Assembly: GCA_023150835.1 (NCBI GenBank)
Contig: JAKLKB010000003.1
Span: 46,607 to 110,606, forward strand
From: Myxococcota bacterium
Lineage (GTDB): Bacteria; Myxococcota_C; UBA6777
DNA length: 64,000 nt
Direction: 5' to 3'
Shown here: one piece after another, positions 12,286 through 61,325 of the stretch
How the letters are laid out: each line of letters begins with the position of its first letter
Position numbering within the stretch: position 1 is the first letter of the stretch
The notes under the pieces: generated by a model
Databases searched by the model: none
What the model was told of the DNA's origin: nothing
What the model saw: only the letters and a program-made list of their open reading frames with translations
Made by a program: the position numbers and the translations under genes

Positions 12286-12477
12286 TTCCCTCTCCTCTCA
12301 CACGCCTCTGTCGTTGCGCTCGCCAAACCAAGCAGACCGCGCACCCACACAGAACAAACAAAGCGGCCATACCGCACCTTGTCGAACCCCAAACCAAACC
12401 GCTCAAAAAAACTTTTATACACCCGCCTTTGAAGATTTCATCCCCACAAATCCCCCATGTTCGGACCACTTCAAGCG

Positions 12478-13114: not shown

Positions 13115-14590
13115 ATGCAGACGAAGCGACTTTTTTATCTTTTGACGCTCCTTGGTCTGATGGCTGTCCCTCATCTGATGGTGTCGGGTTGTGCAAGTCC
13201 CCGTTGTGGCGATGGTATCGTTCAGAAGGATTACACCGACTCAAGCGGTGCGACTGTGACGGAAGAATGTGATGACGGAAACAGCGACAACACCGATGGT
13301 TGCACCAGTTCGTGCAAGCTGGCCGTCTGCGGGGATGGGTATATCCAAACAGGGGTGGAAGAGTGCGACAACGGCAGCAAAAATGCCGATGATGCGACGT
13401 GTACCAAGTCGTGCAAGATCGCCAAGTGCGGTGACGGCCTTGTCCAAAAAGGTGAAGAGTGCGACGACGGCAACACCAACAACAACGATGCTTGCCTCAA
13501 CACCTGCGTCAAAGCCACCTGTGGCGATGGCTTCGTTCAAAAAGATGTTGAAGAGTGCGATGACGCCAACAAAAACAACAACGATTCTTGTACAAACGCT
13601 TGCAAACTAAACGTCTGTGGGGACGGCTTTGTGCATATAGGTGTTGAAGCCTGTGACGATGGAAACCAAGAAGACACCGATGGTTGCACCAAGCTTTGCC
13701 GCCTTCCGACTTGCGGCGATGGCATCGTCCAAAAAGGCGAAGAGTGCGACGACGGCAACAACACCAACACCGATGCTTGCCTCAATACTTGCATCAAAGC
13801 CTCTTGTGGCGATGGTATCATCCAAGCCGGAACCGAAGAGTGCGATGACGCCAACAAAAACAACAACGACGGATGCACCAACACTTGCAAGATCGCCAAA
13901 TGCGGTGATGGTTTCGTCCAAAAAGATGTCGAAGAATGCGACAACGGCCCCAACAACAGCGACACAGGCTCCTGCACAACCGCTTGCAAAAAAGCCACTT
14001 GCGGCGACGGCTTTGTCCAACCGGGCGAAGAGTGCGACGACGGCCCGAACAACAGCAACACAGGCGCTTGTACGCTTGCTTGTAAAAAAGCCAAGTGCGG
14101 TGACGGCCTTGTCCAAAAAGGCGTCGAAGAATGCGACGACGGCAACACCAACGACGGGGATTGGTGCAACGCAACCTGCAAACGCGAGTGCATCCTTGGA
14201 AGCGCCAAAAAACTCGATGGCAACAGTTGTTATATGGCCTTTAACACCACGCTATCTTGGCGTGACGCAGCAGCCGCTTGTTCGATCGTCGGAGCGCACC
14301 TTGCCAACATCGGAAGCGCCGCCGAAAACACCCTTGTCACCGACTTGATCAAGACAGGCGCAGCCGCTTGGATCGGTTTGACCGATCAATACGGCGAAGG
14401 CACCTTTGTTTGGGACGAAGGCAAAAACCGCTATACCGCCCCCACCTTTACCAAATGGGCCGCCAACCAACCCGACAACAACCCGGGCGGCAACGCAAAC
14501 TGCGCGCAGATATCCACCACAGGCGACTGGTCTGACGAAGCCTGCACCCAACTCAAACCCTACGTTTGCAAATACACTTGGCCTCAATAG
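13115..14590 (+). CDS. Lipoprotein with about 9 Myxococcus cysteine-rich repeats and a C-terminal C-type lectin-like domain
   Basis: Signal peptide with a VSGC lipobox. Repeats of CGDGxVQxGEECDDGNxxNNDxCxxxC. The C-terminus WIGLTDQYGEGTFVWDEG...CAQISTTGDWSDEAC...YVCK matches the C-type lectin WIGL / WxD / Cys pattern. RBS AAGAAAGGA. Confidence 0.8.
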   Translation: MQTKRLFYLLTLLGLMAVPHLMVSGCASPRCGDGIVQKDYTDSSGATVTEECDDGNSDNTDGCTSSCKLAVCGDGYIQTGVEECDNGSKNADDATCTKSCKIAKCGDGLVQKGEECDDGNTNNNDACLNTCVKATCGDGFVQKDVEECDDANKNNNDSCTNACKLNVCGDGFVHIGVEACDDGNQEDTDGCTKLCRLPTCGDGIVQKGEECDDGNNTNTDACLNTCIKASCGDGIIQAGTEECDDANKNNNDGCTNTCKIAKCGDGFVQKDVEECDNGPNNSDTGSCTTACKKATCGDGFVQPGEECDDGPNNSNTGACTLACKKAKCGDGLVQKGVEECDDGNTNDGDWCNATCKRECILGSAKKLDGNSCYMAFNTTLSWRDAAAACSIVGAHLANIGSAAENTLVTDLIKTGAAAWIGLTDQYGEGTFVWDEGKNRYTAPTFTKWAANQPDNNPGGNANCAQISTTGDWSDEACTQLKPYVCKYTWPQ

Positions 14591-14646
14591 CGAAGATGCC
14601 CTCCCTCCGTTTTCAACAGTTTTGCTCCGCTGAGGAGGTTTTTTCC

Positions 14647-28536: not shown

Positions 28537-31068
28537 TCAAGACACCCATGAAACACGATCGATACGGTGGGCGTTTCGTCGCCTGCGCCACACACCCCAA
28601 CACAACCATCCCAACAGCCAAAAAGCCAGCCCCAAAGACTCTTGCGAAAGCACAGACTGACAAGAACATCCGAAGGCTCGGGGTTTGAACTCGGAGCCGT
28701 TGGGAACCAAGCAGACTTTCGTGCTATCGGGCTGTTGAACACAGATCGCATTGCCATCGCAGCTTCCGTCGCTACGACAAGGGCCACCAAAGGCCCCAGC
28801 CGCCCGTTCCGTTAGATCTCCGTCAAGCGGTCCGGCATCTGGGGGGCGCGATCCATCAGGAGGCCGTGACTCGGTGCTGCTTCCGCCTTCTTCACGAACG
28901 CTTGTGTTTTCTCCGCTATTTTCGCTTGTGCTTTCGGTACTTGCGTTCCCTTCGGGAGAACTCGCTTGGCAGAGACTATCCAAACACACCTGCCCTTGGG
29001 GACATCGACAATCTTGTGGGCAAGAGTCACATGCCTCTCCTTCTGCACAACGCCCGTCTCCACAATTCGCCAACGGCTTACACAGGCCGTTGTTGCAAGC
29101 TAAACCCTCTGGGCAAAGACAGTCGGCCTTACACGCATCGCATGTTTCGTTGTTGTCACAGATGCCGTTGCCACATTGCGGCTTATTTTCTTCGCATTTT
29201 CCTGCGTTGCAGATCTGTGTTGGCGGACACGCGCAATCTTGCGCACACGTCGCGCAATTTTCGCTTGCATCACACGCTCCGTTGCCGCACGTGGAAGGCG
29301 TGATGCAGATCCCTCCTTGACATTGTTGTCCGCTCGGGCAGGGGCAATCCTTTGGACACGAACTGCAATCCTCGTTGCCATCGCAGCTTCCGTTTCCACA
29401 AACGGCTCCTCCGCTTGGAATACAAAAATTCCCATCGCACGCATACCCTGTCGGACACGTACCGCCCCCGCGCTGTGCGCAAGCGCCAAGGCCCAGATTC
29501 CCCAGCACCTCTTTGTTGCAGTTGTATCCGCTCGCACAATCTGTATCCCCACGACACAAACAAAACGGCGTACCGCTGTTGATCCGCCCGCAAAGTCCGC
29601 CTGCTGCTGCTGCGCACGTACTGTTGCTCGAACAGCTCCGCAAACAAGCACTCAAACCGACGTTGTCGATGCAAGAAGTTCCCGCCGCACACGACGAACA
29701 AGACGAGCCGGGCGCTCCGTTCGGAAAGCCCCCTGTCCCTGTTCCACAAGCCACCGTACAGATCTGCCCCTTGGAAGTGTTTTGACAGATCGTCCCCGCC
29801 ACACACGGGATATTGGCATTGCAAGGCTGACCGAGGTTGGCGGGTTGTGCTTCGATACAAGCCTGATTCTTACAGACAAAACCTGCGGCGCAATCCGCAT
29901 CGCTCTGACACATTTTTTGGCAGCGACCATTTTGGCAAGTCTCGTTGCTCCCACATTCGTTGGTCGTTGCGCAAGGAGCATCGGGGCATTTGTTGGTGTC
30001 GGGCATACAAAGCATCGAAGCTCCCGAAGATTGGCACTTTGTACCCGAAGGACAACAGCCTGCGGCATCGCAGCGCAACAAACAGCGCGAACGGCCATCG
30101 ACTTGGGCGCAGGCACCACCACCACAATCGGCATCTTGACGGCATGGCTTACAGTTTTGGGGTGGGATGGGAAACGTCTTAGGGCCGCACTTTCCGCCTA
30201 CACAATCACGACACGTCCCGCACTGCGCCGCCGAAGTGCAGCCTGTGGTCGGGTAGATCGTACAAACCCCCGACTCTTCGTCCGAAGTGATGCCGTTAAA
30301 CAACGGCCCCACACCACGCACCGAAAAATACATCAGCGAAGAACGCGGGGCTGTATGTCCGAAACCAAGGGCATGACCGATCTCGTGCGCGGCAACGTCG
30401 GCAAAGTCCATCTCGTTGGCTTGTACGTTGGGCGTCATCCCCCACAAACGCCCCGAAGGAAGGGGGTTAAAAGCGATATCCGCATCGATCAACGAACCAT
30501 TCGATGACACCGCTGGTTGCGTCACCGCAAGCACCGAAGAAGGCAGCCGCATCGCCGACCAATCCGCACTCGACGGCAACCAACACACCAAACGCCGATC
30601 CGAAGGATTCCCTTTGGTGGTGGTTTGTCCCAGATAATTGTGCGCAAAGTCCGTACAACTCGGCTGCTTCCAAGCATCCCAAGCCGCTTTTAAAGTTGCC
30701 TCGATGGTGGTTCCTGTCTTGCCTTGGTATCCGCCCTGCCCGGGCATGTTGTTGAGGTTGAGATACCATCCCACAGGCAAAGCAGGCCACTTGTACGGAT
30801 TTCCGCCCACACATTCATTCTGCGCAGCGCAAGTCGCCAGTCCCGAACTCAGCGGATCACAACACGCATCCGCTCCGCCCGCGTTGCCGATCGTCGTGCG
30901 ACAAGAGGTCTGGGTTTGCTTGCATTGTCCGCCCGTCGTCAACGAGTGCCACGCCAAAGCCGCCGATGTACCAAAGAAAAACACCGATACACACAAACAG
31001 AAAAATACCGCACTCCACAAACCAAAGCCAAGTTCCGACCTCACCGTGCTACCCTCGTTGCGACTCAT
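28537..31068 (-). CDS. Secreted matrixin-like (metzincin) zinc metalloprotease with Cys-rich EGF-like region and MYXO-CTERM-type C-terminal anchor
   Basis: Signal peptide. HEIGHALGFGH matches HExxHxxGxxH, followed by a Met-turn-like LMYF. About 400 aa of Cys-rich modules follow. The C-terminus FGCSCQSVLSQESLGLAFWLLGWLCWGVWRRRRNAH is a GC motif, TM helix and Arg cluster. Confidence 0.8.
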   Translation of the reverse strand: MSRNEGSTVRSELGFGLWSAVFFCLCVSVFFFGTSAALAWHSLTTGGQCKQTQTSCRTTIGNAGGADACCDPLSSGLATCAAQNECVGGNPYKWPALPVGWYLNLNNMPGQGGYQGKTGTTIEATLKAAWDAWKQPSCTDFAHNYLGQTTTKGNPSDRRLVCWLPSSADWSAMRLPSSVLAVTQPAVSSNGSLIDADIAFNPLPSGRLWGMTPNVQANEMDFADVAAHEIGHALGFGHTAPRSSLMYFSVRGVGPLFNGITSDEESGVCTIYPTTGCTSAAQCGTCRDCVGGKCGPKTFPIPPQNCKPCRQDADCGGGACAQVDGRSRCLLRCDAAGCCPSGTKCQSSGASMLCMPDTNKCPDAPCATTNECGSNETCQNGRCQKMCQSDADCAAGFVCKNQACIEAQPANLGQPCNANIPCVAGTICQNTSKGQICTVACGTGTGGFPNGAPGSSCSSCAAGTSCIDNVGLSACLRSCSSNSTCAAAAGGLCGRINSGTPFCLCRGDTDCASGYNCNKEVLGNLGLGACAQRGGGTCPTGYACDGNFCIPSGGAVCGNGSCDGNEDCSSCPKDCPCPSGQQCQGGICITPSTCGNGACDASENCATCAQDCACPPTQICNAGKCEENKPQCGNGICDNNETCDACKADCLCPEGLACNNGLCKPLANCGDGRCAEGEACDSCPQDCRCPQGQVCLDSLCQASSPEGNASTESTSENSGENTSVREEGGSSTESRPPDGSRPPDAGPLDGDLTERAAGAFGGPCRSDGSCDGNAICVQQPDSTKVCLVPNGSEFKPRAFGCSCQSVLSQESLGLAFWLLGWLCWGVWRRRRNAHRIDRVSWVS

Positions 31069-48777: not shown

Positions 48778-50040
48778 TCACAACGAGCGCAAAAAGGCCA
48801 ACAAAGCCTCTTGTTCCGTAGAAGAAAGCGCGAAAAATCTATCGCGACTTTTTTGTGCTTCACCGCCGTGTTCGTCGATGGCTTCTTTGAGGGTTTTGGC
48901 GCGCCCATCGTGCAAGTAAAAAGGCTGCCCTCCCATCAAATCTCCGATTACACCCAACCCCCAAAGTGGCGTCGTTCGCCACATATCGCCTGTCGCTTGC
49001 CCCTCGGGGTATCCGTCGGCCAGCTTGGGTCCCATGTCGTGCAATAAGAGATCAGAGTACAGAGGAACCGTCTTTTCACGGAGAGCTTCGATCGCACTCT
49101 TTCCTGTTTTCATGGAAGGGACATGGCATTTTGCACACCCGACTTGCGCAAAAAAACCTTCGCCTTGTTTCACCACGGGATTTTCCGCATCACGCCGAGG
49201 GGGTGGGCGCAAGGTCCGCATATAAAATGTCACCGATCGAACCGTTGCAGCGGATACTTCGGGATCTGGAGCGCTGTCTCCCGAAGGTCCACCGACAAGA
49301 GGATTATGCAGATCTTTCATCAAAAAGTCGGAGGTGATCCCCATATCGTTGAGATAGGCTTCGGCTACCTGTTGCAACAAATTGATCGCCGCCGCTTTTC
49401 GCCCAAAGCGCCCCATGATCTTGCCGTCCTTTGGCGTGTGTTCGATCACAGGCTCGAAGAAACTCGGCGGAGTGACGTAGTTGGGCCGCCCTCGGATCCC
49501 ATCGCCGTCTTTGTCGTCTGGATCGGCGTATCGGAGGATCTCGGATTCGGGGATCGCCTCGATCAAACCCAGCCCTGTCACGATGGGAGCGCTGCGCACA
49601 GAACGCGCTAAACCTTCCAGATTCGGTAGCTTTTCAGCTTGGTAGCCAAGGACCGCTCGGTGCTGGAGTTGAGGCCCCCCAAGGTGCAGCAAGTAATCAA
49701 AACGCGCAGCATCCGTCGGATCGCCCACCCCAAAGCGCGTCAGGTTGGTCGACGGATGCCCCTTGCCATCGGCGGTATGACAAGCGATACACGACGCTTC
49801 CACAAAGATCGGCCCCAAGCCCGTTGCAGGTGTAAAGACACGTGCGAATTCTTCGTCTCCTGCCTTAAACGTCTGCAACTGTGCGTGAGAAAGCCCCTCG
49901 ATCGGCCCATCCAGCACCGTTTCTCGTCGCGGCTCTTCTGTGAACAACACGCCGCAACCGCTCCCACACACCATCCAAACACTCCACAAACACAAAAGCC
50001 GAAACATCCAAGACATCGTATAAGTCCTATCTCTTTGCAA
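48778..50040 (-). CDS. Di-heme c-type oxidoreductase (DUF1111 / putative thiol oxidoreductase-peroxidase) lipoprotein
   Basis: Two CxxCH motifs (CIACH, CAKCH). A VCGSGC lipobox. Size and spacing are typical of the DUF1111 di-haem family. Confidence 0.65.
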   Translation of the reverse strand: MQRDRTYTMSWMFRLLCLWSVWMVCGSGCGVLFTEEPRRETVLDGPIEGLSHAQLQTFKAGDEEFARVFTPATGLGPIFVEASCIACHTADGKGHPSTNLTRFGVGDPTDAARFDYLLHLGGPQLQHRAVLGYQAEKLPNLEGLARSVRSAPIVTGLGLIEAIPESEILRYADPDDKDGDGIRGRPNYVTPPSFFEPVIEHTPKDGKIMGRFGRKAAAINLLQQVAEAYLNDMGITSDFLMKDLHNPLVGGPSGDSAPDPEVSAATVRSVTFYMRTLRPPPRRDAENPVVKQGEGFFAQVGCAKCHVPSMKTGKSAIEALREKTVPLYSDLLLHDMGPKLADGYPEGQATGDMWRTTPLWGLGVIGDLMGGQPFYLHDGRAKTLKEAIDEHGGEAQKSRDRFFALSSTEQEALLAFLRSL

Positions 50041-50058
50041 GAAACTTTTCGATTTGCC

Positions 50059-51432
50059 TCAAAAGTAGGTCGCCACGCCAAACTGTACCCCCGCACGACG
50101 CGCCACATTCCCCAAACGATCTGTGAGCCAACTGTGTTGGTACTCCACACGCAAAGAAGTCCCTTCGTAGGGGCGAAACGACAGAGCCAACGTCAAGCGC
50201 AACGTCTCGTCGCCGATATCCTGCCCCGTTGACGCAAAACGCCCGACGTGCAGATCGACGTAATCAACGCGCCCCACAAGACGAAACGCAGCCTCTCGTA
50301 AAAATCCAAGACGCCCCTTCCAAAATTCCCAGATCACATCCGCATAAATCCCCCACTGCGTATCCGCAAACAGCTCCACCAAACCATCCGGGATATCGAT
50401 CCAAGCGACCGCTGCTTCGGTGCGGATCGTGACCGGCCCAAAAGATATCTCCGCATCCACCGCAAAGATCTTGAGCCACAACGCTCGATCGATCTCTTCG
50501 GCTCCGTCCCGATAACGGTTGAAGATCCCCACATACCCCGAAAACCCGACCTCAAGCCCCAAAGGTCCTGCATACGCGATCCGACCCGTCAATGCAGGAG
50601 ATCCGTTTTCATTGGCCGCAAAGATCGCCGACGATTTGCCTCGTGCGATCCGCGTCCCTTCGGCAGAATCGTTGATGATCCCGCTGCGCAACCCGTTCAC
50701 TACGTAGAGTTCGTAATACAACTTGTGCCCAAGCGCAGGAAAAAAACTACCCGTCACACCAAAGCCGACATCCGAGTACGTCGACGGGATCACCCATGTC
50801 GAGACCAATGGCCGATCGATCACATCATAACGCGGCCCATCGTGGGCGATATTGAAACGCCCGATAGGAGGCAGCAAGATGCCCCCTCGCAACACAAACG
50901 CCCGATGGAAGCGAAAATCCACCAGCGCCGTCTCCAACGCGATGCTCGAAGTTCCCTGCTCGAATTCCAACTCCGCCGTCAAACGTACAAAACTCCCAAG
51001 AGACGAAAAAACAAACAGATTAAAGCGCCGCGCCTCAAACGAAAAGCCATCCGTCAACCCTTCTTGAAGGATGTATCGACCCAAAAACTCGGTATACCCG
51101 CCCAAGGCGATCGACATCCCACCAAGCGCCTCCGAAGTCCCCAGCCTACCGATATAAGGGCGATCATAAATTCCACCCCGAACCACGGGTGTCTCGGACG
51201 TTGTTGGTTTTTTCCCGAAGTTCCCTTCATATTGAAAGCTCGGAGCCTTTGGTGTATCCGCTTTTTGAGAAGATGTCGGAAGGCTACTTGGCCTTGAAGT
51301 CGGCGGCCCATACGCGGCGTGCTCCTGAGCACGTGCAAGATCAAGCCCTGCCCAAAACACAACCCACGCACCCAGCAGCCCAAAGCACCGACGCCACCAA
51401 ATCCCCAAAAACACACAACCGCCCAGCTTCAA
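50059..51432 (-). CDS. Outer-membrane beta-barrel (porin-like) protein
   Basis: Signal peptide, an alternating amphipathic beta-strand pattern and a C-terminal aromatic residue (…GVATYF). It has a 4-bp overlap with the upstream Rieske gene. Confidence 0.55.
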   Translation of the reverse strand: MKLGGCVFLGIWWRRCFGLLGAWVVFWAGLDLARAQEHAAYGPPTSRPSSLPTSSQKADTPKAPSFQYEGNFGKKPTTSETPVVRGGIYDRPYIGRLGTSEALGGMSIALGGYTEFLGRYILQEGLTDGFSFEARRFNLFVFSSLGSFVRLTAELEFEQGTSSIALETALVDFRFHRAFVLRGGILLPPIGRFNIAHDGPRYDVIDRPLVSTWVIPSTYSDVGFGVTGSFFPALGHKLYYELYVVNGLRSGIINDSAEGTRIARGKSSAIFAANENGSPALTGRIAYAGPLGLEVGFSGYVGIFNRYRDGAEEIDRALWLKIFAVDAEISFGPVTIRTEAAVAWIDIPDGLVELFADTQWGIYADVIWEFWKGRLGFLREAAFRLVGRVDYVDLHVGRFASTGQDIGDETLRLTLALSFRPYEGTSLRVEYQHSWLTDRLGNVARRAGVQFGVATYF

Positions 51433-51989
51433 CGGCCACCTCCCCGCGCTCTCAAGTCGATCCAGACGCCTTCGGCCTTCTCCACAACGGGATAGCGCAC
51501 CAACCCAGACCGCGCAGGCCCGGCCAAACGCGCTCCCATCCGATCAAATCGCGCCCCATGACACGGACATTCATAACCATCAGGCTCTGCATCGACCTCA
51601 CACCCCCGATGACTGCACCGCGATAGCAAAGCAACGTACCCCTCCGAAAGCTTTCGCAAATAGATCGGCGGCCCCCATCCTCCCGCACGCAACGACAACA
51701 CAGTCTGCGCGTCCTTGAGCGATACCAACTTCGCACGAGGAACCAAAGCCCATCCCCCTTGGATCGGCGCTTCATAAGCAACCTGTTTGACACACCCCAC
51801 ACCGCCAAATGCTGCACCACTCGCCAACACCAACGCCACCCGACCCAGCCGCCCCAACAACGCACGGCGCGTACACTCCGCCTCACCATCCCCCGTCGCT
51901 TCGGCCTCGCCCTCCTCCCAAAGTTGCTCGGCGTTTTCGTCGCGTTGCTGACAACCCATGCACAAAGGCGCACACTCTAATTTCTCCAT
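51429..51989 (-). CDS. Rieske [2Fe-2S] domain protein with Tat-like signal and extra N-terminal CxxCxxC cluster
   Basis: CSHRGC ... CPCHGARF is the Rieske CxH...CxxH pattern. RRALLGRLGRVALVLASGAAF is a twin-arginine-like signal. An extra Cys cluster CAPLCMGC precedes it. The start MEKLE at about 51989 is preferred over the longer ORF. Confidence 0.65.
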   Translation of the reverse strand: MEKLECAPLCMGCQQRDENAEQLWEEGEAEATGDGEAECTRRALLGRLGRVALVLASGAAFGGVGCVKQVAYEAPIQGGWALVPRAKLVSLKDAQTVLSLRAGGWGPPIYLRKLSEGYVALLSRCSHRGCEVDAEPDGYECPCHGARFDRMGARLAGPARSGLVRYPVVEKAEGVWIDLRARGGGR

Positions 51990-52127
51990 GTTCCGTTGCT
52001 TACCTCGGCTCTTTCTCTCAATCCAATAGAAATAAGACTTCACCTGCGCCCTTGGCGCGGCTCCAAGAAGCAAGAGGATAAAAGCAAAGCTAAAAGGATG
52101 CAAATCCTTTTTTAGCAAAGGCTAAAA

Positions 52128-53000
52128 TTAGCTTTTCGACTGGATCAAAGCGCGGGCTTGTCGGCGGACGGCTTCACGCAAAGCGTTGGATTTGGCGAGG
52201 ATACGCAAGTTCTCTTGGCGCAGTTGCCGCAACAATTGAAGAGCCAACGGTGTGGGCGTTTTTGGATGACGAACGGCCAACATCTTTAAGTCTTCGCTGC
52301 CTTGAAAGCGCCGATCTTTGAGGAGCATCTGGATGATCTCGCCTGTAATGTGTTTATTTCGCATCATGCTCTGGGCTTCGTCTAAACTCAGTCGAGGATT
52401 TTGCAGCAAAAGCTTCAAGACTTGTGGATGAGCATCTTGCGTCAGCAATGCTCTTTCCTGTCGATCTGCCCGTATCGCCAAGCGTGCGCGCTCAAATGTG
52501 CCGCGTTCTTTGAGCTGATGCAGCACAGAGATATCCCCGACCCGTCGGATGGACTCGCCTTCTGTCGCCGCTTCGGCCTCCAAAGCTGCCATCTCTTCTT
52601 CCGACAACTTTTCTCCCACGTATGGCTCTTCTCCCTCGATCTCATCGGATGAGGCGATGGCTTCGGATGCAGCCCATGCTCCCATGCGCTCGTGGGCTGT
52701 CGCAAGCTCTTTTTGTGCGTTTGGATCTTGACGGATCTGTATCGTCATGCCGACCCCTTCGGCCATACGCATCACTTGGACCACTTCGCCTCGCAACGAT
52801 ACCGACGTACCATCAGGCAGCAACAAAGCGATCTGCACCTGCGCAAACGCCGACAAAGCCCGTTCAAACACAGCGTACAGAAAGCCCTGTTGAAGTCCTT
52901 GTTGGTATAGCGAAACAAACGTTTGCGCTTCGCTACATACCAATTCAACCCTTGCATCCGAAGAATCCGAACCTTCTTGCAACCCTCTTACCGACCACAT
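52128..53000 (-). CDS. Hypothetical protein, possible PilZ-like N-terminal domain and Leu-rich helical C-terminal domain
   Basis: Only a weak resemblance. RBS GGACGGAG. Confidence 0.35.
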   Translation of the reverse strand: MWSVRGLQEGSDSSDARVELVCSEAQTFVSLYQQGLQQGFLYAVFERALSAFAQVQIALLLPDGTSVSLRGEVVQVMRMAEGVGMTIQIRQDPNAQKELATAHERMGAWAASEAIASSDEIEGEEPYVGEKLSEEEMAALEAEAATEGESIRRVGDISVLHQLKERGTFERARLAIRADRQERALLTQDAHPQVLKLLLQNPRLSLDEAQSMMRNKHITGEIIQMLLKDRRFQGSEDLKMLAVRHPKTPTPLALQLLRQLRQENLRILAKSNALREAVRRQARALIQSKS

Positions 53001-53355
53001 CGCCTACTCCGTCCGTTTGGCTTGATGAAAGACCACATCCTGCTTCGACCCTACACCAAAGGCGTCGTCCTGCACACCTCTCTCCAGCCTCGAAGACGAT
53101 ACGCCTTGACCTTGCGGGCCTTGTTCACTACGCTATCGCCCGAATCTCGGCACGTTATCGCCCGAATCTCAGCGATCCGAGCGACCGCCAAGATCGCCTC
53201 GCACCGTAAAACATTCTTTGCGCTGCGACCTTGCCCATGCCATGCTCGCAACTCTTCACTCAATTTTCACGCGACGCCTACAACCCCTTCAAGTCTTCTC
53301 TGCACTTAGCGCGATGTTGCGCCACTCTTCTTTCCCGCCCAAAAAAAGAGGCCCG

Positions 53356-53904
53356 ATGAAGACACACACAACTCCTGCCTCTCTTCGCCTTCTTGCCACA
53401 CTCGGCCTTTGTATGGCGTTGTTTTTCTTTGGCAAACGCTGGTATCAGCAAGCCGAGACCTCATCGCTGCTTTGGCTACTCGGCCCCACCACGCAGGCGC
53501 TGTCTTGGTGGTCTGGAAAGACCTATCACTTCGTGGTGTCTGAAGGATTTTTACGAGAAGATGGCGCTTTGCTGATCCACAAAAACTGTTCCGGTTTTCA
53601 GTTTTTTTTACTTGCGCTGCTTGTCTCATGGTCTTCTCTGCTGTATCACGCTCGCTCTTTTCGTACAGGCTTTGTTCGCTTTTTGATCAGCAGTTGTGCA
53701 GCGTATCTGTTGACCTTGCTTGCCAATACCGCACGCATTCTTTCCGCTGAACACTTGGCTGCCATGCCATCGATCGCGTCACACATCGCCGCCGACACCC
53801 TTCATCAAAGTGTCGGGATCTTTGTGTACTTCAGCTTTTTGGTGCTCTTTTCTCTTTGCCTTTGGAGTGTACCCGATGAACGTCCCAACCCAACCCCATC
53901 TTGA
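53356..53904 (+). CDS. Mini exosortase/archaeosortase-family-like integral membrane protein (182 aa)
   Basis: It starts at MKTHTT with an AAAGAGG RBS and has about 5 TM helices. NCSGFQ lies in one helix and LLANTARIL in the next, giving the exosortase-type Cys and Asn-x-x-Arg arrangement. The gene end overlaps the next ORF by 29 nt. Confidence 0.55.
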   Translation: MKTHTTPASLRLLATLGLCMALFFFGKRWYQQAETSSLLWLLGPTTQALSWWSGKTYHFVVSEGFLREDGALLIHKNCSGFQFFLLALLVSWSSLLYHARSFRTGFVRFLISSCAAYLLTLLANTARILSAEHLAAMPSIASHIAADTLHQSVGIFVYFSFLVLFSLCLWSVPDERPNPTPS

Positions 53905-56900
53905 ACCCGCCGAACCATCTAGGCAACTGGATCTACAAAGCAGCAACCATCCCTACTGGCTATTGCTCAGCCTCACTCTCCCACAAGTCTTGTTGTGGTT
54001 GGCTTTTTTCTATCAATACATCTTGATCCAAAGTCTTTTATCTGACAAGAGTAAAGGCTATTGGGCAGATTATGGAATGCTGATCGGCGCAGGGATTGTT
54101 GGATCGATCTTTGTTGCATGCTTTTTCCGATACAAACGTCATCCTCTTCCTGCATGGCTCGCTCCGCTGCTTTTGTTCGGATATATCGGCCTTCTTTATT
54201 TTTCGATCAAAGATATGCCCCAGCTTTTACCGTTCAACATCCCGCAGTGGATGAGCCAACGAGAAGAATTATCACTTCTTCCTTTTGCTTTCACGATGCC
54301 TGTTCTTTTTCATGCTTTGTTGATGTTGATCGCTTACTTTACGCCGAACCAAGACGAGACGGCCTCTTTCCCTAATTTCTTTTATGCGCTGCTGATCCCG
54401 TTGATCTGGTACTTTTTTATCCAGATCCTTGTGCCGTATTTGCGAACAAAAACGTACCTTTCGGAGCGCCTTTTTCTGATCTTTTTTATCTGCACAACGG
54501 TTTGTTTTTTCTTTTTTCTTTTGCGCGGTGTGCTGTTGGCCCTGCGAAAGAACCAAAAAACATCGCGTTATGCCCCATTCTGGCGTCTTTTGATCGCGTT
54601 GATCTTACCGCTTGCTGGGCTGGTGACCTACAACGCACGCAGCCTTTTTGGAATGCGCGGGATGCACACGCCTCAGATCGTTGGCGAACTCAGCCATCCG
54701 CTTTTCTATCTTTGCGCGATCCTCGCGGCAGGTGCGCTGCTTGCTCCATCTCCGCTGCTTCCACGCGCACGCTTGGCGCTGTTTTCGTTGCGTATGGTCG
54801 TGTATCCTTACACGCTGTTTTTCTTTGTGATCTTCTTGCCTTTCTTGCCTTTGTCGTTGCTTGCGATCTTGGTGATGGGTCTGGGTTTTCTGATGCTTGC
54901 TCCGACCCTGTTGATGATCTTGCACAGCAGGACACTCGCAGAAGAATGGAGAGCGCTTCGCCTGCATTACCGCACAACCCTGCTTGGTCTCGTTGCTGTC
55001 CTTTCCTTTTTTGCCGTCCCCTCTGGCATCCTCACTTATCTGTTCCAAGAACGCGCCACACTCCACCGCGCACTCGCCTATCTTTATCAGCCCGATCACC
55101 TGCGCGTCCAAGCCCCCGATATCTATCCCGCTCTCCTGCGCAACAGCATCGACGCTCTGCGCCAACACCACCAGCGCAGACGTGGACGCCGTTTCGTGAT
55201 CGCGGACGAAAAGCGTGTACCCTTTCTGACTTCTCTTTACAAAAGCATCGTGCTTGACAATATGACTTTATCGCAAAACAAGATCAACGAACTCTCCCAA
55301 ACCTTTTTGGGCAACACTTCTCCCTCCCAAACCACGACTGCTCGCCTCTTCCGCCCCAACAGAGCCTCTCCATCCGCTTCACTTCAGCCCATCCCCCCCC
55401 AAACCACCGCGATATCGCCCCATCAGTCGCGCTCTCCCCAAAGTACCGTCGCTTCGACCTCTCCTCCGCGCTCTCCCCAAAGTACCGTCGCTTCGACCTC
55501 TCCTCCGCGCTCTCCCCAAAGTACCGTCGCTTCGACCTCTCAACCAAACGTGAAGATTGCTCAACCATCCCCTGCGTCGGCCTCCAAGATGTTTACACCG
55601 TCTCCGTCTGTAAGCACCCAAACCGCCCTTTCCGCCACAAGGCCAACTTCTGCCACAGCCGCGACAGCCAGCCCCCACGCAGCCACGCAGCCCACCGTCG
55701 CCGCTGCTCAACCAGCATTTCGCATCACTACACCCAAGATCACACACTTACAAACCAGCACACACTACGATCCAACGATCCACGCTTACAAAAGCACGAT
55801 CCTTCTTCGGATCACGAATTACGGGACTTGGCAGCAAGAATTCTCCACCTCTTTCCAGATCCCGCTCGGTGTTTGGGCGAGTGCCTATGCCCTTTGGATC
55901 GATGGGAAAAAAGTGGACGGTGCGCTCACCGAAAAAAAGGCGACGCTGTGGGTCTATCAACAGATCGTTCGTGCGCGCCAAGATCCCGGCCTGTTGTACT
56001 ACGAAGACGCGACCACACTACGCCTGCGGGTGTTTCCCGTCCTTGCTCGCGAGACACGCCAAACGAGTTTCACGCTGTTGCACAAAGCGCCTTTTTCCTT
56101 TCAGATCGGCGCAAGCACACATCACCTCGACGATAGCCGTGTGCTCTCTCGGATGCAGCGCCCGATCGAACGGCTGTGGGGAGATCACCTGCTGTTCTTC
56201 CCGCACGAACAAAAAGCCAAACTCCCCACGTTGACGCGCAAGCCTTATCTGCACGCGATCCTCGATTGTTCACAGGGACGAAAAAGCCATTATGCCCTCT
56301 ACATCGAACAGATCCGCAAGCTGCACCAACGCTACAACCTCGATCCCACGCACACCCGCGTCACCTTTGCGAACTATCAAGCCCACACCAGCGCTTGGTC
56401 CGCTGACTTGCTCCAACACCTCGAAAGCTATCCTGCCCAAGGCGGACTTTTTCTTGTCCGCGTCCTCAAACGCATCTACCTCGAACACGCCACCCAAGCA
56501 CGCGACTCTTTCCCTGTGGTCGTCGTACTCACCCCTCGCATCCAAGACGCGATCCTCAAACAAAGACTCCAAGGAGTCCCGTTTTTAAGTCCCGACGCTG
56601 CGTCTTTTTATAGCCTTAACCCGCAAGATCGGTTCACACGCCACAGCCTTTACGGTCCCTTACGCGATCAAGAGATCCAAAACACCGATCCTGCGACATT
56701 TCAGCCCTTTTCCTTGGGGACTGTGCGTACATGGCCAGACGCGCAGCATCCTCGCGTATTCTTGCGCAACGATGGACAAGATAGCCTCGTATTGCGCGTC
56801 CCTTACGTGGCTCAGATGCCGCCCACCGCACTTCCCAACGATCCGTGGCAAGCGGGACTTGCGATCTATGGGCGTTGGCTATTGCAACAGCTACGTTTGG

Positions 56901-57178
56901 GGGGACAAGAAAACTGGCTTGCGCAGATCCGTTGGAGTTGGTATGCCCGCATCCTCGGACCTCAGACCTCCTTTACTGTGCTGGAAAATCAAGCCCAATG
57001 GGAAGCCTTGCGCCGAAAACAACAGCAAGTCCTCGCAGGAAAAAGCTTTTTCGATCTGACCGAAGACGAAGGACCACGCCGTGCGGATGAACCGCCGCTC
57101 GGAGGGTTGGTGCTGTTGTTGGGGATGTTCTTCTTCTACTTTCTGCGCAAAACACGCAAAGCGCGGTCCCAGAATTAA
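53876..57178 (+). CDS. Giant polytopic membrane protein with S/P/T-rich repeat linker, large C-terminal globular domain and PEP/MSEP-CTERM-like terminal sorting signal
   Basis: About 10-12 TM helices in the first ~440 aa. 3x perfect SPPRSPQSTVAST repeats. A ~500-aa domain. The final residues ADEPPLGG-LVLLLGMFFFYFL-RKTRKARSQN give a motif, TM helix and basic cluster. The start at 53876 is coupled to the mini-exosortase gene. Confidence 0.65.
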   Translation: MNVPTQPHLEPAEPSRQLDLQSSNHPYWLLLSLTLPQVLLWLAFFYQYILIQSLLSDKSKGYWADYGMLIGAGIVGSIFVACFFRYKRHPLPAWLAPLLLFGYIGLLYFSIKDMPQLLPFNIPQWMSQREELSLLPFAFTMPVLFHALLMLIAYFTPNQDETASFPNFFYALLIPLIWYFFIQILVPYLRTKTYLSERLFLIFFICTTVCFFFFLLRGVLLALRKNQKTSRYAPFWRLLIALILPLAGLVTYNARSLFGMRGMHTPQIVGELSHPLFYLCAILAAGALLAPSPLLPRARLALFSLRMVVYPYTLFFFVIFLPFLPLSLLAILVMGLGFLMLAPTLLMILHSRTLAEEWRALRLHYRTTLLGLVAVLSFFAVPSGILTYLFQERATLHRALAYLYQPDHLRVQAPDIYPALLRNSIDALRQHHQRRRGRRFVIADEKRVPFLTSLYKSIVLDNMTLSQNKINELSQTFLGNTSPSQTTTARLFRPNRASPSASLQPIPPQTTAISPHQSRSPQSTVASTSPPRSPQSTVASTSPPRSPQSTVASTSQPNVKIAQPSPASASKMFTPSPSVSTQTALSATRPTSATAATASPHAATQPTVAAAQPAFRITTPKITHLQTSTHYDPTIHAYKSTILLRITNYGTWQQEFSTSFQIPLGVWASAYALWIDGKKVDGALTEKKATLWVYQQIVRARQDPGLLYYEDATTLRLRVFPVLARETRQTSFTLLHKAPFSFQIGASTHHLDDSRVLSRMQRPIERLWGDHLLFFPHEQKAKLPTLTRKPYLHAILDCSQGRKSHYALYIEQIRKLHQRYNLDPTHTRVTFANYQAHTSAWSADLLQHLESYPAQGGLFLVRVLKRIYLEHATQARDSFPVVVVLTPRIQDAILKQRLQGVPFLSPDAASFYSLNPQDRFTRHSLYGPLRDQEIQNTDPATFQPFSLGTVRTWPDAQHPRVFLRNDGQDSLVLRVPYVAQMPPTALPNDPWQAGLAIYGRWLLQQLRLGGQENWLAQIRWSWYARILGPQTSFTVLENQAQWEALRRKQQQVLAGKSFFDLTEDEGPRRADEPPLGGLVLLLGMFFFYFLRKTRKARSQN
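55429..55545 (+). repeat. 3x 39-bp perfect coding tandem repeat (ctctccccaaagtaccgtcgcttcgacctctcctccgcg)
   Basis: Seen directly. It encodes RSPQSTVASTSPP units in the linker of the target protein. Confidence 0.85.
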
Positions 57179-57202
57179 GCTTGGGTCGGCCCCCCCCTCA
57201 TT

Positions 57203-57448
57203 CCCCCCGGCCAACGGGGGGAAGTTGGAGCAGGCAAAGACGCACCCGCAGAAGTCGTACCTGCAAGAGAGACCACAGCGGCCAACGGGGGGAAGTTGGA
57301 GCAGGCAAAGACGCACCCGCAGAAGTCCAAGTGTTCGGGAACCGCCCGTGTATCGGGACATCGAGCAGCGAACGGACACGCTCACACAACCACAGAAGTT
57401 TACGTAGGGGCGGTTCGCGAACCGCCCGTGTATCGGGACATCGAGCAG
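57203..57448 (+). repeat. Intergenic direct-repeat cluster upstream of the Clp ATPase gene: 2x 48-bp unit (period 71) and 2x 30-bp unit
   Basis: ggccaacggggggaagttggagcaggcaaagacgcacccgcagaagtc occurs at 57209-57256 and 57280-57327. gaaccgcccgtgtatcgggacatcgagcag occurs at 57339-57368 and 57419-57448. The ccccccggccaacgggggg hairpin also occurs at 12636-12660. Confidence 0.8.
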
Positions 57449-57677
57449 TGTTGTCTTTCCGACAGCACAGACGAAGTGTCCGAGTGTTCGGGGTGGGGGG
57501 CCAACCATCGCTTAACAAGGCGCGTATGGGGCGTCGCACAACGACGGGGTGAGGGTGAAACGAACATGGGAGGCCCTCTGGGTACTTGCCAGAACAAGCG
57601 AACCTGCGCAAGATCCATCCGTCCATAAGGCCCGCACCGATCGACCCGACGGATGCGCCCATCTTCACGGAGTTTGG

Positions 57678-60600
57678 ATGAACCCCCAAGACAGCACCCC
57701 CGCCAAAGACACCGCCCCCCAAGAAGCCCAACAAACCCAGATCATCAAGCTCAAGCTGTTTGTTCAAGAACACCACGACGGCCAATTTACCCTCGAAGTC
57801 CTCGGAAAACGCGATATCTGCGTGTACACACCCGACCTCGATCAAGGCCGCGAAGAACTGATGTTGATGCTTGTCGATCTCGTTGAACGCAGCCATCCCC
57901 GACTCCAAAGTAGCTTCCAACCCCCCGAAGATATCGAACACCACACCATCGAGATCCCCCGTGTGGTCTATGTTTCCGATGCTTCGGGACGTAGCGCAAC
58001 CCCAACCAAAGTATCGATGTTCCTTCAACGCGATCGCAAATGGCAACGTCTGTATTTTCCGCGCCTTGACTGCCATTACTGGCTATCGATCGAGGCTCCG
58101 CTCGAAGAAAATGCGATCTCCTTTCTTCAGCAACATCAGTTTAAAAAGATGAGCGATCACGCTCGCCTCAATCAGCGCTATGAGAAAAAAGAATGGATCG
58201 AAGAGTTGGAGATCGAAGCGATCCGTCCTCCCCTCGAAGAGTTTACAGGCCGGTATCTTGGGGTAGATCTGTTGCCGACTCCTGCGGAGCGCAAAGAAGC
58301 CGAAGAAAAAGAAGAGGAAGAAAACGCCCAAAAGCAAGGAAAAAAAGGCAAGAAGCGCCCGAATACACCGACATTTAAGAAGATCGGGATCCCGATCGCA
58401 CAACAAGCCAAAGACAAAGAACTCGAACATGCCTACGGACGGGACAAAGAGATCGAGTCGTTGTTTGGGATGCTGCAAGCCAAAGGCGGCAAAGCCATCG
58501 TACTAGTCGGTCCTTCGGGCTGTGGCAAAAGCGCCTTGTTGTCGGAGTTGGCCTATCGCGTGACGCACCCTGACACCCCCGAAGCCCTGCGCGAACGGCC
58601 TATTTGGTTTGCTGATGCCAACCGCGTCGTCGCAACAGACGGATGGTTCGGCGACTGGCAAAGGCAGTGCCTTGATGTCATCCAAGAAGCCATCGATGCC
58701 GAAGTGATCTGGTACATCGGCGATGTCTTGCATCTGCTTGATGCCGGAAAAAACGTTCGTTCCGAGCAAAACGTCGCGATGATGCTCAAGCCCTATCTTG
58801 CAGGCCGTCGCATCACGGTGATCGGTGAGTGTTCCTCGCGCAACTTTGCACAGCTTGAGTTGCGCGATGTCGGATTCGCCCGTATGTTCAGCCCTTTTCG
58901 CCTCGAAGATCCCCCCCCCGAAACGATCCGCTCCATCCTTCAAGAAGTCTCCAAAGATCTCAAAAAAGAACGCGCCATCGACGTATCGAGCCAAGGCTTG
59001 GACACCACGATGGAACTCAGCCGACGCTTCCAAAGCTCCCAAAGCCTACTCGGCCACAGCGTGGCCTTTTTGCGCCGCCTTGTGGACGACGCTTCCAGCA
59101 CAGAAGCCCCCCCCAAAGAACCACTCGGACGCAACGAAGTGATCGCTCACTTTTGCTCAGAAACAGGGATGCCTGCTTTTTTGGTGCGCGATGATCTTCC
59201 CCTTGATCCCGAAGCGATCTGGATGAGCTTTCGCACCCGCTTGATCGGCCAAGAAGAAGCCATCCGCCGCATGACCGATCTTGTCGCCATGATCAAGGCT
59301 GGGCTCTCTGATCTAGGCCGTCCCCTCGGCTCTTTTCTTTTTGTCGGTCCCACCGGCGTCGGAAAAACAGAGATGGCCAAGTGCCTTACCAGCTTTTTGT
59401 TTGGCCGCGAAGACCGCTTGATCCGCTTTGATATGTCCGAGTTTATCGACGCTTCAAGCGTCTATCGCTTCCTTGGTGACGCCCAAAATGAAGGGAAATT
59501 AATTAGCGCCATCCGCCGCAACCCGTTTTCTGTGCTGTTGCTCGACGAGATCGAAAAAGCCCATCCTGCGGTCTTTGACGTCTTGCTCCAAGTCCTTGGC
59601 GAGGCCCGACTCACCGACGAAGCAGGCCGCACCGCCGATTTCCGAAACGTCGTCGTCTTGATGACCTCAAACCTTGGTGTCGGCACTTTTCGCCGCCAAG
59701 TCGGCTTCGATCAAGGCGATGCGCTGCGCTTTCGCGATCACTTTCTGGCCGAAGCCGAACGCTTCTTTCGCCCCGAATTCTTCAACCGTATCGACTACAT
59801 CATCCCCTTTATGCCCCTCGAAAGCGAAGCCATCCATCAGATCACTGTGCGCGAGATGAACAAGTTCTTGCGCCGCGAAGGCATTCAACACCGCGAACTC
59901 CAACTCCAGATCGATCCGCTCGTCCATCCGTGGCTTGCCGAACGCGGCGTCAACCCACGCTACGGCGCACGCCCGCTCAAGCGCGTGCTTGAACAACAGC
60001 TAACCGCCCCTCTCGCACGACACCTTTCGAGCCAACGCGGCCCGCACATCGGACAGATCGGCGTCCAACCCGAAAAAGAAGCCCTTCAATTTACCAACCT
60101 CGGACAATCCAAACGCCAAGACACCCAACAAGCGCGAGCCACACTTCAAAAGCTGCTCGAACAGATCGGACTGGTTCGCTACCGCGCTCAGCGTTGGTCG
60201 CGTACCACCCTCTTTCGCGAACTCCACCAAAAAGTCCGCTTGTTTGATCGCCTCAGCCAGTCCCCCAACTTTTGGAACGATCACCATACCGCCGAACAAT
60301 ACGTCAAAAACATCGACGCAGAGCGCCAAGTCATCGAACAGTACCGCAGTTTTCAAGAGATGATCTGCTCCATCGAAGACCTCGCTTACGAGACTTATTA
60401 CGATCGCTCCGTCTCACAAAAACACACACTCGAAGAAGAACTTGCGCAGGCCGAAAAAAGCCTTGAAGCCTTGGAGTTTCAACTGTACGGTCAGCGCTTC
60501 CAACACCCCAACGCAGCGACCCTGTACTTTGAACCCGGCAAAAGCGCCGCAGGATTCTTGCGGGCCCTGCTTGAAACCTACATCGAGATCGCCATCGAAC

Positions 60601-61325
60601 GCGGGTGGCAAGTGACGGCCTACGCTTCGCGCCGCGTCCTCGATGAAGAACTTGAAATCCAACAGATCCCTGTCGAAGATCCCCCTCTTCCCGAGTCCTT
60701 GGCTGCTTTAGAAGAGCTTCAAAAACGCAAAGACCGCCGTCCCAACAACGCAAATGCAAGCGCAAATGCAGCTCCCTCCGAACAAGAAAACGAGCAAGAA
60801 TCTATCCGCCGCGCCAACGAACAACGCCTGCTCGAATTCAAAAAGCGCAACTCTCTCGAATACCGCCGCTGGCTCTGGCGCGAGCTCGATCCCCCCGATC
60901 TCGCAGAGTCCGAGATGCGAAAACGCCGCATCGAGCGCCTACTTGATCAGCTTTACTCTTTTAGCGGCGACGAATACCCCCGTGTCATGGTCTTTGAAGG
61001 CCAGCACGCCGCAAGCCTACTCAACCACGAAAGCGGCCTCCACACCCGCATCGCCCGCGATCAAACCGAGCAAGTTAAAGTCTTTTACGCCGATCAGCGG
61101 CCCTCCAAAAAAGAACAACTCCTTCATCCCGTCGATCTTTCCGAGAAATGGAGCACACAACGCCTTCGCACCGCCCAAGAAAACAAAAACCTCTTGATCG
61201 ATCATGTCCTTGATACGCACGTCTACCTCGAACCCCGCCTCCACCTTCTTTATGCTCGCATGATGCGCAGCCACATCTACGTCAACACCTTCGGCGAACA
61301 AGCCGCCAAGTGGCTTCGCACCTAG
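57678..61325 (+). CDS. Giant ClpA/ClpB-family double-AAA+ ATPase (about 1216 aa) with novel N- and C-terminal domains
   Basis: D1 has Walker A GPSGCGKS and a ClpB-like LKPYLAGRRITVIGECS block, but its Walker B is IWYIGDVLH, with no DE. D2 has Walker A GPTGVGKT, Walker B VLLLDEIEKAH and ARPLKRVLEQ. The D2 loop RRQVGFDQGD parallels the ClpA IGL / ClpX IGF ClpP-docking loop. The start MNPQD at 57678 has a GGAG RBS. Confidence 0.8.
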   Translation: MNPQDSTPAKDTAPQEAQQTQIIKLKLFVQEHHDGQFTLEVLGKRDICVYTPDLDQGREELMLMLVDLVERSHPRLQSSFQPPEDIEHHTIEIPRVVYVSDASGRSATPTKVSMFLQRDRKWQRLYFPRLDCHYWLSIEAPLEENAISFLQQHQFKKMSDHARLNQRYEKKEWIEELEIEAIRPPLEEFTGRYLGVDLLPTPAERKEAEEKEEEENAQKQGKKGKKRPNTPTFKKIGIPIAQQAKDKELEHAYGRDKEIESLFGMLQAKGGKAIVLVGPSGCGKSALLSELAYRVTHPDTPEALRERPIWFADANRVVATDGWFGDWQRQCLDVIQEAIDAEVIWYIGDVLHLLDAGKNVRSEQNVAMMLKPYLAGRRITVIGECSSRNFAQLELRDVGFARMFSPFRLEDPPPETIRSILQEVSKDLKKERAIDVSSQGLDTTMELSRRFQSSQSLLGHSVAFLRRLVDDASSTEAPPKEPLGRNEVIAHFCSETGMPAFLVRDDLPLDPEAIWMSFRTRLIGQEEAIRRMTDLVAMIKAGLSDLGRPLGSFLFVGPTGVGKTEMAKCLTSFLFGREDRLIRFDMSEFIDASSVYRFLGDAQNEGKLISAIRRNPFSVLLLDEIEKAHPAVFDVLLQVLGEARLTDEAGRTADFRNVVVLMTSNLGVGTFRRQVGFDQGDALRFRDHFLAEAERFFRPEFFNRIDYIIPFMPLESEAIHQITVREMNKFLRREGIQHRELQLQIDPLVHPWLAERGVNPRYGARPLKRVLEQQLTAPLARHLSSQRGPHIGQIGVQPEKEALQFTNLGQSKRQDTQQARATLQKLLEQIGLVRYRAQRWSRTTLFRELHQKVRLFDRLSQSPNFWNDHHTAEQYVKNIDAERQVIEQYRSFQEMICSIEDLAYETYYDRSVSQKHTLEEELAQAEKSLEALEFQLYGQRFQHPNAATLYFEPGKSAAGFLRALLETYIEIAIERGWQVTAYASRRVLDEELEIQQIPVEDPPLPESLAALEELQKRKDRRPNNANASANAAPSEQENEQESIRRANEQRLLEFKKRNSLEYRRWLWRELDPPDLAESEMRKRRIERLLDQLYSFSGDEYPRVMVFEGQHAASLLNHESGLHTRIARDQTEQVKVFYADQRPSKKEQLLHPVDLSEKWSTQRLRTAQENKNLLIDHVLDTHVYLEPRLHLLYARMMRSHIYVNTFGEQAAKWLRT

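Follow-up and report, generated by a model that had tools for sequence, protein, structure and literature searches.

The 64,000-nucleotide (nt) window analysed here (positions 46,607 to 110,606 of contig JAKLKB010000003.1 in assembly GCA_023150835.1, from a bacterium of the Myxococcota) contains two overlapping genes on the forward strand, which encode a 182-residue exosortase K (XrtK) and an 1100-residue MSEP-CTERM protein, its probable substrate (Table 1). The pair belongs to the already catalogued XrtK/MSEP-CTERM family, and both exact proteins carry family names in GenBank. The corresponding family models, TIGR04287 and TIGR04286, are present in NCBIfam under TIGRFAMs-style accessions, so that the pair was already known. 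A prediction made earlier from the sequence of the window alone (hereafter the original prediction) had described the small gene product as an exosortase-like protein of about half the usual length, coupled to a polytopic target with a C-terminal sorting signal. The gene coordinates, the 29-nt overlap, the lengths of 182 and 1100 residues and the motifs NCSGFQ and ANTARIL are all present as described there.

The xrtK open reading frame (ORF) starts with an ATG at 53356, which is preceded by AAGAGG four nt 5' of the start, and ends with a TGA at 53902-53904. Its product reaches 98.8 bits against the NCBIfam model TIGR04287 'exosortase K' (cut-off 55, E=2.2e-28, model positions 5-154 of 163) and 30.4 bits against the exosortase/archaeosortase signature TIGR04178 (cut-off 23); NCBI holds the exact sequence as 'exosortase K [Myxococcota bacterium]'. 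The large ORF starts with an ATG at 53876, with GGAG eight nt 5' of the start, and its stop codon occupies 57176-57178; the NCBI gene call for this protein likewise comprises 1100 residues. It scores 622.5 bits (E=1.2e-186) against TIGR04286 'MSEP-CTERM sorting domain-containing protein' (cut-off 150) and is identical to NCBI MCK6508675.1, an entry of the same name from a Myxococcota bacterium, located on a 133,763-bp contig. The check by hidden Markov models (HMMs) that the original prediction had proposed thus turned out positive for TIGR04287, TIGR04178 and TIGR04286, and the numbers it had given for the two family-specific models are correct. Its statement that the pair 'resembles' the MSEP-CTERM system was right as a comparison but understated, as the two proteins are actual members at 1.8 and 4 times the respective cut-offs. 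The name XrtM, which it used for the enzyme, was mistaken, because TIGR04287 denotes exosortase K.

Table 1. Positions of the xrtK/MSEP-CTERM genes and of the features encoded by them, numbered within the 64,000-nt window.
Feature	Position	Strand	Basis or remark
xrtK gene (exosortase K, 182 aa)	53356..53904	+	predicted five helices and a beta-hairpin
Cys78 codon, putative catalytic nucleophile	53587..53589	+	in HKNCSGFQ, just before helix 81-98
Arg127 codon	53734..53736	+	in LANTARIL (N-T-A-R-I), on an extension of helix 102-135
His150 codon	53803..53805	+	in the stretch L-H-Q-S-V-G, where helix 146-170 begins
29-nt overlap of the xrtK 3' end with the 5' end of the target gene	53876..53904	+	read from the sequence
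MSEP-CTERM family gene (1100 aa)	53876..57178	+	TIGR04286 score; exact NCBI entry
N-terminal polytopic domain, residues 27-404, 11 transmembrane helices, conserved FLPFLPL at 320-326	53954..55087	+	hydropathy and AlphaFold2
Disordered Ser/Pro/Thr-rich linker, residues 484-616	55325..55723	+	pLDDT ~30
Perfect 39-bp repeat in three copies, coding for the 13-aa SPQSTVASTSPPR	55428..55541	+	Tandem Repeats Finder: period 39, 2.9 copies, 100% matches
VIT domain, beta-sandwich, residues 621-751	55736..56128	+	Pfam PF08487 and AlphaFold2 beta strands
vWA-like alpha/beta domain, residues ~785-975, degenerate MIDAS	56228..56800	+	
Conserved helical region, residues 990-1054; its helix VLENQAQWEALRRKQQQVL directly precedes the signal	56843..57037	+	AlphaFold2 helices
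Tripartite sorting signal: R-ADEPP (motif codons 57083-57097), hydrophobic helix 1075-1090, RKTRKAR 1091-1097	57080..57175	+	tail alignment

A library search with XrtK retrieved 1008 clusters at E<=0.001, mostly of 170-190 residues. In an alignment of 84 representatives (pairwise identity <=50%, mean column identity 28%), only Pro44, Cys78, Arg127 and His150 are invariant, and Asn124 in the LANTARIL motif is conserved in at least 90% of the XrtK sequences. Cys78, Arg127 and His150 are likewise invariant in 77 XrtK sequences taken from genome loci (the figure for Cys78 is 99%), where Gly154 is invariant too. A Cys/Arg/His triad and the assignment as cysteine proteases have been proposed for exosortases and archaeosortases (bioRxiv 10.1101/2023.06.07.544157). 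Judged from the alignment, His150, a residue that the original prediction did not mention, completes a putative triad of this kind; the conservation of Cys and Arg and the assignment of the small protein to the exosortase enzymes, both part of that prediction, were confirmed. The AlphaFold2 model of XrtK (predicted local distance difference test, pLDDT, 93.9; predicted template-modelling score, pTM, 0.88) contains helices at 7-32, 35-53, 81-98, 102-135 and 146-170 and a beta-hairpin at 57-67. The order of these helices would place Cys78, Arg127 and His150 at one membrane face, opposite the Lys/Arg-rich C-terminus. A structure search returned no solved structure similar to XrtK.

The C-terminus of the MSEP-CTERM protein reads RR-ADEPP-LGGLVLLLGMFFFYFL-RKTRKAR-SQN, and residues 1075-1099 form the terminal helix in its AlphaFold2 model. 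Motif, hydrophobic helix and basic tail are present in all 60 homologues of the large protein, as the original prediction had required of a genuine signal. In the motif columns of the resulting 61 sequences, Met is found in 27/61, Ser in 24/61, Glu in 35/61 and Pro, corresponding to Pro1073 here, in 61/61; of the E-P-P core whose conservation the original prediction had proposed to check, the Pro is therefore invariant, but the Glu is not. The Myxococcota protein carries A-D-E-P in place of the Met-Ser-Glu-Pro signature and retains only Glu-Pro and the preceding Arg, while its clade as a whole shows (A/M)-D-E-P-P. The first basic residue follows the Pro at a spacing of 17, compared with a family median of 16. 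Because the Glu-Pro core is kept, the Pro is invariant and the spacing lies near the family median, ADEPP is a spelling variant of the family motif R-M-S-E-P at the level of a lineage or clade, and not a separate motif class as the original prediction had suggested for DEPP. The tail by itself matches TIGR04286 at positions 867-915. At E values up to 10, no match to PEP-CTERM models was reported for the tail, and the last 60 residues, in which the tail lacks a Cys, gave no match to the MYXO-CTERM model TIGR03901.

With one conserved peptide pattern of the large protein, relatives were found in 250 GTDB species genomes, and the best 80 loci were analysed. Among these, 78 belong to Bacteroidota or Balneola and two to Myxococcota (L001 and L002, with 90% and 50% identity, respectively). 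The marine proteobacteria named as hosts in the original prediction are not where these loci lie; that statement probably conflated the family with the Gram-negative sortase/VIT-vWA LPXTG system (PMC3237569). An XrtK ORF is located directly upstream on the same strand in 76/80 loci, in agreement with the proposal that the large protein is an adjacent, dedicated target with a tripartite signal. Two of the other four loci are cut off by contig ends and two are without XrtK. In the reverse direction, all three sampled XrtK representatives have a large protein overlapping directly downstream by 4-23 nt; two of these proteins contain VIT and the third runs off its contig. The genes also overlap, by 4-32 nt, in the relatives L083, L084, L085, L086 and L087. 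Thus, the pairing of XrtK and target is near-universal and the genes overlap. Neighbour clustering across the 80 loci revealed no third conserved gene, the next most frequent families occurring in 14/80.

The pairing extends to distant homologues on the metagenome contigs L083 and L084 (the L083 protein is assigned to Kiritimatiellia in NCBI), in which the tail carries TPEP or APAPA; these clades retain adjacent overlapping exosortases of 177 and 168 residues, respectively. An ArsR/HTH_20-type regulator gene is found a few genes upstream of the pair on these contigs, and a similar small winged-helix gene is present in 14/80 Bacteroidota loci.

Four Hymenobacter loci (L057, L071, L081 and L082) encode full-length MSEP-CTERM homologues with a PID-CTERM tail (Pfam PF28310) and have no adjacent XrtK. 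These proteins are orthologous over their full length (30-38% identity) and share the TM, VIT and vWA architecture, but where the others have MSEP, their tail reads (T/V)P(I/L)D(G/S/D). Hymenobacter loci with an MSEP tail also keep XrtK. In total, 74 loci combine an MSEP-like tail with XrtK and four a PID tail with its absence, while MSEP-like tails without XrtK and PID tails with XrtK were both counted zero times. On sequence evidence, such covariation is what one would expect of an enzyme that reads the tail.

The reading favoured here, at a probability of about 0.8, is that the locus is a two-gene, one-enzyme-one-substrate XrtK/MSEP-CTERM cassette in Myxococcota, in which exosortase K is dedicated to this tail and acts on it. 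The small protein could instead be a non-catalytic membrane partner or assembly factor, with the C-terminal helix serving as a twelfth transmembrane (TM) helix that is never removed. Three points would suit a non-catalytic role: compared with a standard eight-TM exosortase (PMC3237569), XrtK is only about half as long; its match to the Pfam model is confined to the final part; and the literature search brought up no experimental evidence of cleavage for any family member. Such a role, however, leaves unexplained why Cys, Arg and His are invariant despite a mean column identity of 28%, why an invariant Pro stands at a fixed spacing ahead of the helix, and why XrtK was lost exactly where PID-CTERM replaced the tail. 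Given the invariant triad and the covariation of tail and enzyme, a non-catalytic partnership is therefore highly improbable.

The enzyme/substrate reading has weak points of its own. XrtK reaches only 21.8 bits against Pfam Exosortase_EpsH (PF09721), under the gathering cut-off of 25.7, and the match spans model positions 156-252 of 254 only, i.e. approximately the last 100; it is partial because the N-terminal half of the eight-TM enzymes has no counterpart in XrtK. The clustering of Cys, Arg and His is argued from helix order rather than from model coordinates, and the positive-inside rule gives no clear answer for XrtK itself. On the target side, the name-giving Met-Ser is replaced by Ala-Asp, and the segment following TM11 is Arg-rich (mean of 3.0 Lys plus Arg), which is odd for a segment placed in the periplasm. 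All four PID-tail loci come from Hymenobacter and probably reflect one evolutionary event, so that they do not count as four independent observations. Finally, the literature search on exosortase K (XrtK) and MSEP-CTERM yielded neither a relevant paper nor an experiment for any member, and we infer cleavage, its site and the fate of the new C-terminus alike by analogy. All of these points count against a dedicated exosortase acting on this tail.

The target is organized, from the N- to the C-terminus, as 11 TM helices, linker, VIT domain, vWA-like domain (vWA, von Willebrand factor type A) and tripartite tail. The domain order of its AlphaFold2 model (pLDDT 78.8, pTM 0.76) agrees with the hydropathy profile, and the 11 N-terminal helices obtained by both approaches lie within the range of 10-12 originally proposed. 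In the model, the TM domain is followed by three soluble helices at residues 418-478. The invariant columns of the TM domain are mostly Pro, Gly and aromatic residues, which, as far as the alignment can tell, give no hint of catalysis. Pfam and structure searches found neither a Pfam family nor a specific solved-structure neighbour for this domain. It was also considered as a missing half or paralogue of XrtK, a possibility that was rejected, as hhalign of the two family alignments gave a probability of 0.3%.

Lys and Arg residues, averaged over 61 homologues, number 11.4 in the loops on the N-terminal side of the membrane versus 3.8 on the other side. By the positive-inside rule, the N-terminus of the target would therefore be inside. 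With 11 TM spans, the ectodomain would consequently be periplasmic, the tail helix would run from out to in, and the basic cluster would be cytoplasmic. To our knowledge, tripartite sorting signals are all oriented in this manner. As the tail would thus have the same orientation as in such signals generally, the topological puzzle that the original prediction saw in a polytopic substrate dissolves. What cleavage achieves on a protein that is still anchored N-terminally, a question also raised there, is a fair one, and it is common to the whole family.

The globular part of the target extends approximately over residues 620-1055; the globular domain of the original prediction is thus present, at ~440 rather than ~500 residues. 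The VIT domain is matched by PF08487 at residues 639-733 with 38.6 bits (cut-off 26.5). The metal-ion-dependent adhesion site of the vWA-like domain (MIDAS; D-x-S-x-S plus downstream Thr and Asp) is incomplete: His793, Asp797 and Ser799 are conserved, but the Thr and the second Asp are not. The Thr position is occupied by Phe in 53/61 homologues and by Leu in the Myxococcota protein, while the second Asp is present in only 18/61 homologues and replaced by Pro in the Myxococcota protein. Thus, a functional MIDAS is lacking although the fold is vWA-like. In the helical region that precedes the signal, E1037 and Q1041 are invariant, and K1048 and L1053 are conserved in at least 90% of the family alignment. 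The top Foldseek match of the ectodomain is inter-alpha-inhibitor heavy chain 1 (ITIH1; PDB 6fpy), which shares the arrangement of VIT and vWA folds at 9-11% sequence identity.

The original prediction also noted that a Ser/Pro/Thr linker is encoded by perfect 39-bp repeats, and Tandem Repeats Finder identified exactly these. From the juxtamembrane helices to the VIT domain there are 142 residues in this protein, 112-129 in its three closest relatives and 17-52 elsewhere in the family, and the long repeat-bearing linker is an expansion specific to this clade. Near-identical relatives carry three (P0213), two (P0004 and P0005) or one (P0216) copy of the 13-residue repeat. This variation therefore points to a recent, ongoing change of copy number in a disordered spacer, and the perfect 39-bp copies are most simply read as not being a functional element in their own right.

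If XrtK acts on this tail, both proteins would be produced from one translationally coupled message. The target would insert with its N-terminus in the cytoplasm, so that past TM11 the linker and the VIT/vWA ectodomain would be periplasmic. The C-terminal helix would then re-enter the membrane and place RKTRKAR in the cytoplasm, so that R-A-D-E-P-P would lie on the inner membrane's outer face. The catalytic residues of XrtK, with Cys before helix 3, Arg after helix 4 and His before helix 5, would be located at the same face, the Lys/Arg-rich C-terminus being on the opposite one. XrtK would cut at or next to Glu-Pro via a thioacyl intermediate on Cys78 and thereby remove helix and basic tail. 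The intermediate could be hydrolysed, which would leave the ectodomain tethered only by the N-terminal polytopic domain and the flexible linker, or it could be transferred to a lipid or an envelope glycan, in analogy to ArtA lipidation and to the inter-alpha-inhibitor heavy chains.

In the first case, XrtK would be a hydrolytic maturation protease only: it would cut off the C-terminal anchor in the manner of a pro-peptide, with no attachment to follow. An ectodomain that is pinned at both ends would have one end freed and could take up an active conformation above the TM domain of the same protein. The permanent N-terminal 11-TM anchor would make a new anchor unnecessary, no conserved glycan or lipid biosynthesis genes are found beside the pair in the 80 loci, and a linker of just 17-52 residues in most members would keep the ectodomain near the inner membrane. 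On the other hand, the Cys/Arg/His triad mirrors that of sortase transpeptidases, cleavage and lipid attachment are linked and both depend on the enzyme in the case of the related ArtA (bioRxiv 10.1101/2023.06.07.544157), and a simple protease would not need the strict motif-helix-basic layout with its fixed spacing, although this last argument is weak. Such a function is possible, though doubtful.

In the second case, XrtK would be a transpeptidase that joins the new C-terminus to an acceptor in the outer envelope (a glycan, a lipid or an outer-membrane component), and the protein would bridge the inner membrane and the outer layers as a possible bacterial counterpart of the inter-alpha-inhibitor heavy chains. 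Maturation of these heavy chains couples the loss of a C-terminal pro-domain to ester formation between the new C-terminus and a glycosaminoglycan (PMC7170535), and the parallel with the proposed processing of the XrtK target is suggestive. It is in line with ITIH1 being the best structural match of the ectodomain and with the recurrence of VIT/vWA proteins as LPXTG, PEP-CTERM and GlyGly-CTERM targets, dedicated systems included (PMC3237569); the 142-residue disordered linker of this clade could also span the periplasm. However, analogy is the sole basis of this proposal, and the short linkers of most family members, the absence of linked genes for acceptor synthesis and the degenerate MIDAS all speak against it, which makes attachment to the outer envelope unlikely. 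Its most specific form is a covalent trans-envelope tether: the 11-TM domain would remain in the inner membrane, and XrtK would transfer the VIT/vWA C-terminus to a glycan or lipid of the envelope. This form is somewhat less likely again.

Comparison with related systems places the locus firmly within the XrtK/MSEP-CTERM family. It shares with other members HMM scores above the cut-offs, an enzyme of ~180 residues with Cys, Arg and His, a target with polytopic N-terminal domain, VIT and tripartite tail, and a one-to-one arrangement of adjacent, overlapping genes. It differs from them in its motif (R-A-D-E-P-P versus R-M-S-E-P-(S/G)), its host (Myxococcota versus Bacteroidota) and its linker (142 residues with repeats versus 17-52). 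XrtN and the XrtN-system VIT protein (TIGR04477) likewise combine a dedicated small exosortase with a VIT-domain target. Membership of the pair in the XrtN system was rejected: the target scores 47.4 bits against the TIGR04477 cut-off of 250, and only the VIT region matches, at positions 349-436 of 822. In the dedicated Gram-negative sortase system (TIGR03784), a VIT/vWA ectodomain with an LPXTG tripartite tail is also the single target of an adjacent enzyme (Haft 2011, PMC3237569), but neither the fold of that enzyme nor the motif is related to those of the XrtK system. The VIT/vWA targets of the Gram-negative LPXTG, GlyGly-CTERM and PEP-CTERM systems, in contrast to the XrtK target, have N-terminal signal peptides and no 11-TM domain (PMC3237569). 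A literature search that combined exosortase with VIT and vWA retrieved nothing relevant.

The pairs XrtA/EpsH with PEP-CTERM and ArtA with PGF-CTERM have in common with the XrtK system the TIGR04178 signature, a Cys/Arg/His triad and a C-terminal helix whose outer end bears a motif containing Glu-Pro. XrtA/EpsH and ArtA have approximately eight TM helices and many signal-peptide substrates (PMC3237569), whereas XrtK has five helices and one substrate. ITIH1, finally, is a secreted eukaryotic protein with a complete MIDAS, a different processing chemistry and no membrane domain.

The flanks of the pair in Myxococcota are syntenic: a Rieske protein is encoded upstream, and downstream follows a ClpB-like AAA+ protein. 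In the window, a di-haem oxidoreductase (DHOR), a 457-residue protein without family match and the Rieske protein are encoded upstream at 48778-52118 (-), and a 1258-residue double AAA+ protein (AAA_2, ClpB_D2-small) with a stretch resembling a peptide-chain-release factor (PCRF) at residues 894-1026 is encoded downstream at 57549-61325 (+). The Rieske gene is also found upstream of the pair in L085, and the AAA+ gene is located downstream in the Myxococcota loci L002 and L085, in the latter with a restriction-modification gene in between. The intergenic region between the MSEP-CTERM and AAA+ genes (57179-57548) contains two pairs of direct repeats: a perfect 49-nt pair (57208-57256 and 57279-57327) and a 36-nt pair with 97% identity (57333-57368 and 57413-57448), in addition to inverted arms of 15 nt (57333-57347 and 57408-57422). 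The 30-nt and 32-nt cores of these repeats have no other match within the window. Across 52900-57700, Rfam gave nothing near gathering scores, the intergenic repeats included; a promoter scan found no sigma-70-like promoter, and terminator-like sites did not exceed the shuffled expectation.

A crude screen of the window for tripartite tails returned only that of the MSEP-CTERM protein, and a second look added one sub-threshold MYXO-CTERM-like tail. It belongs to an 843-residue ORF at 28537-31068 (-) with a weak metalloprotease match (NF038122), whose C-terminus consists of GCSC, a hydrophobic helix and RRRR; the tail scores 15 bits against TIGR03901 (MYXO-CTERM; cut-off 20) and 16.1 against PVV-CTERM (cut-off 27). 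The co-existing MYXO-CTERM system that the original prediction assigned to the host is therefore only weakly visible in the window. Two further proteins, encoded at 13115-14590 and 14566-18660 (+), abound in the cysteine-rich acidic repeat of myxobacteria (TIGR02232; 7 and 9 matched stretches, respectively), and a 2506-residue protein with choice-of-anchor D domains is encoded at 5009-12529 (-). These proteins fit a host from the Myxococcota that has many surface proteins.

As a discovery, the pair matters little, as it belongs to a catalogued family and its proteins had already been named in GenBank. The XrtK/MSEP-CTERM system is nevertheless widespread, with 250 species genomes detected by one peptide pattern and about 1000 XrtK clusters, and among exosortases with one obligatory substrate encoded next door, XrtK is the smallest. 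This small enzyme with its single adjacent substrate is therefore a convenient model for asking whether exosortases transpeptidate and what they attach. The covariation of enzyme and tail, the N-in topology with 11 TM helices and the heavy-chain-like ectodomain provide concrete, testable predictions. If XrtK does transfer its substrate, the exchange for a PID tail and the loss of XrtK in Hymenobacter would represent a natural experiment, in which the same ectodomain was handed to a different sorting machine. Should the trans-envelope tether exist, it would be a prokaryotic counterpart of the transfer of heavy chains to hyaluronan, and the repeat-variable 142-residue linker would set its span in this clade of the Myxococcota.

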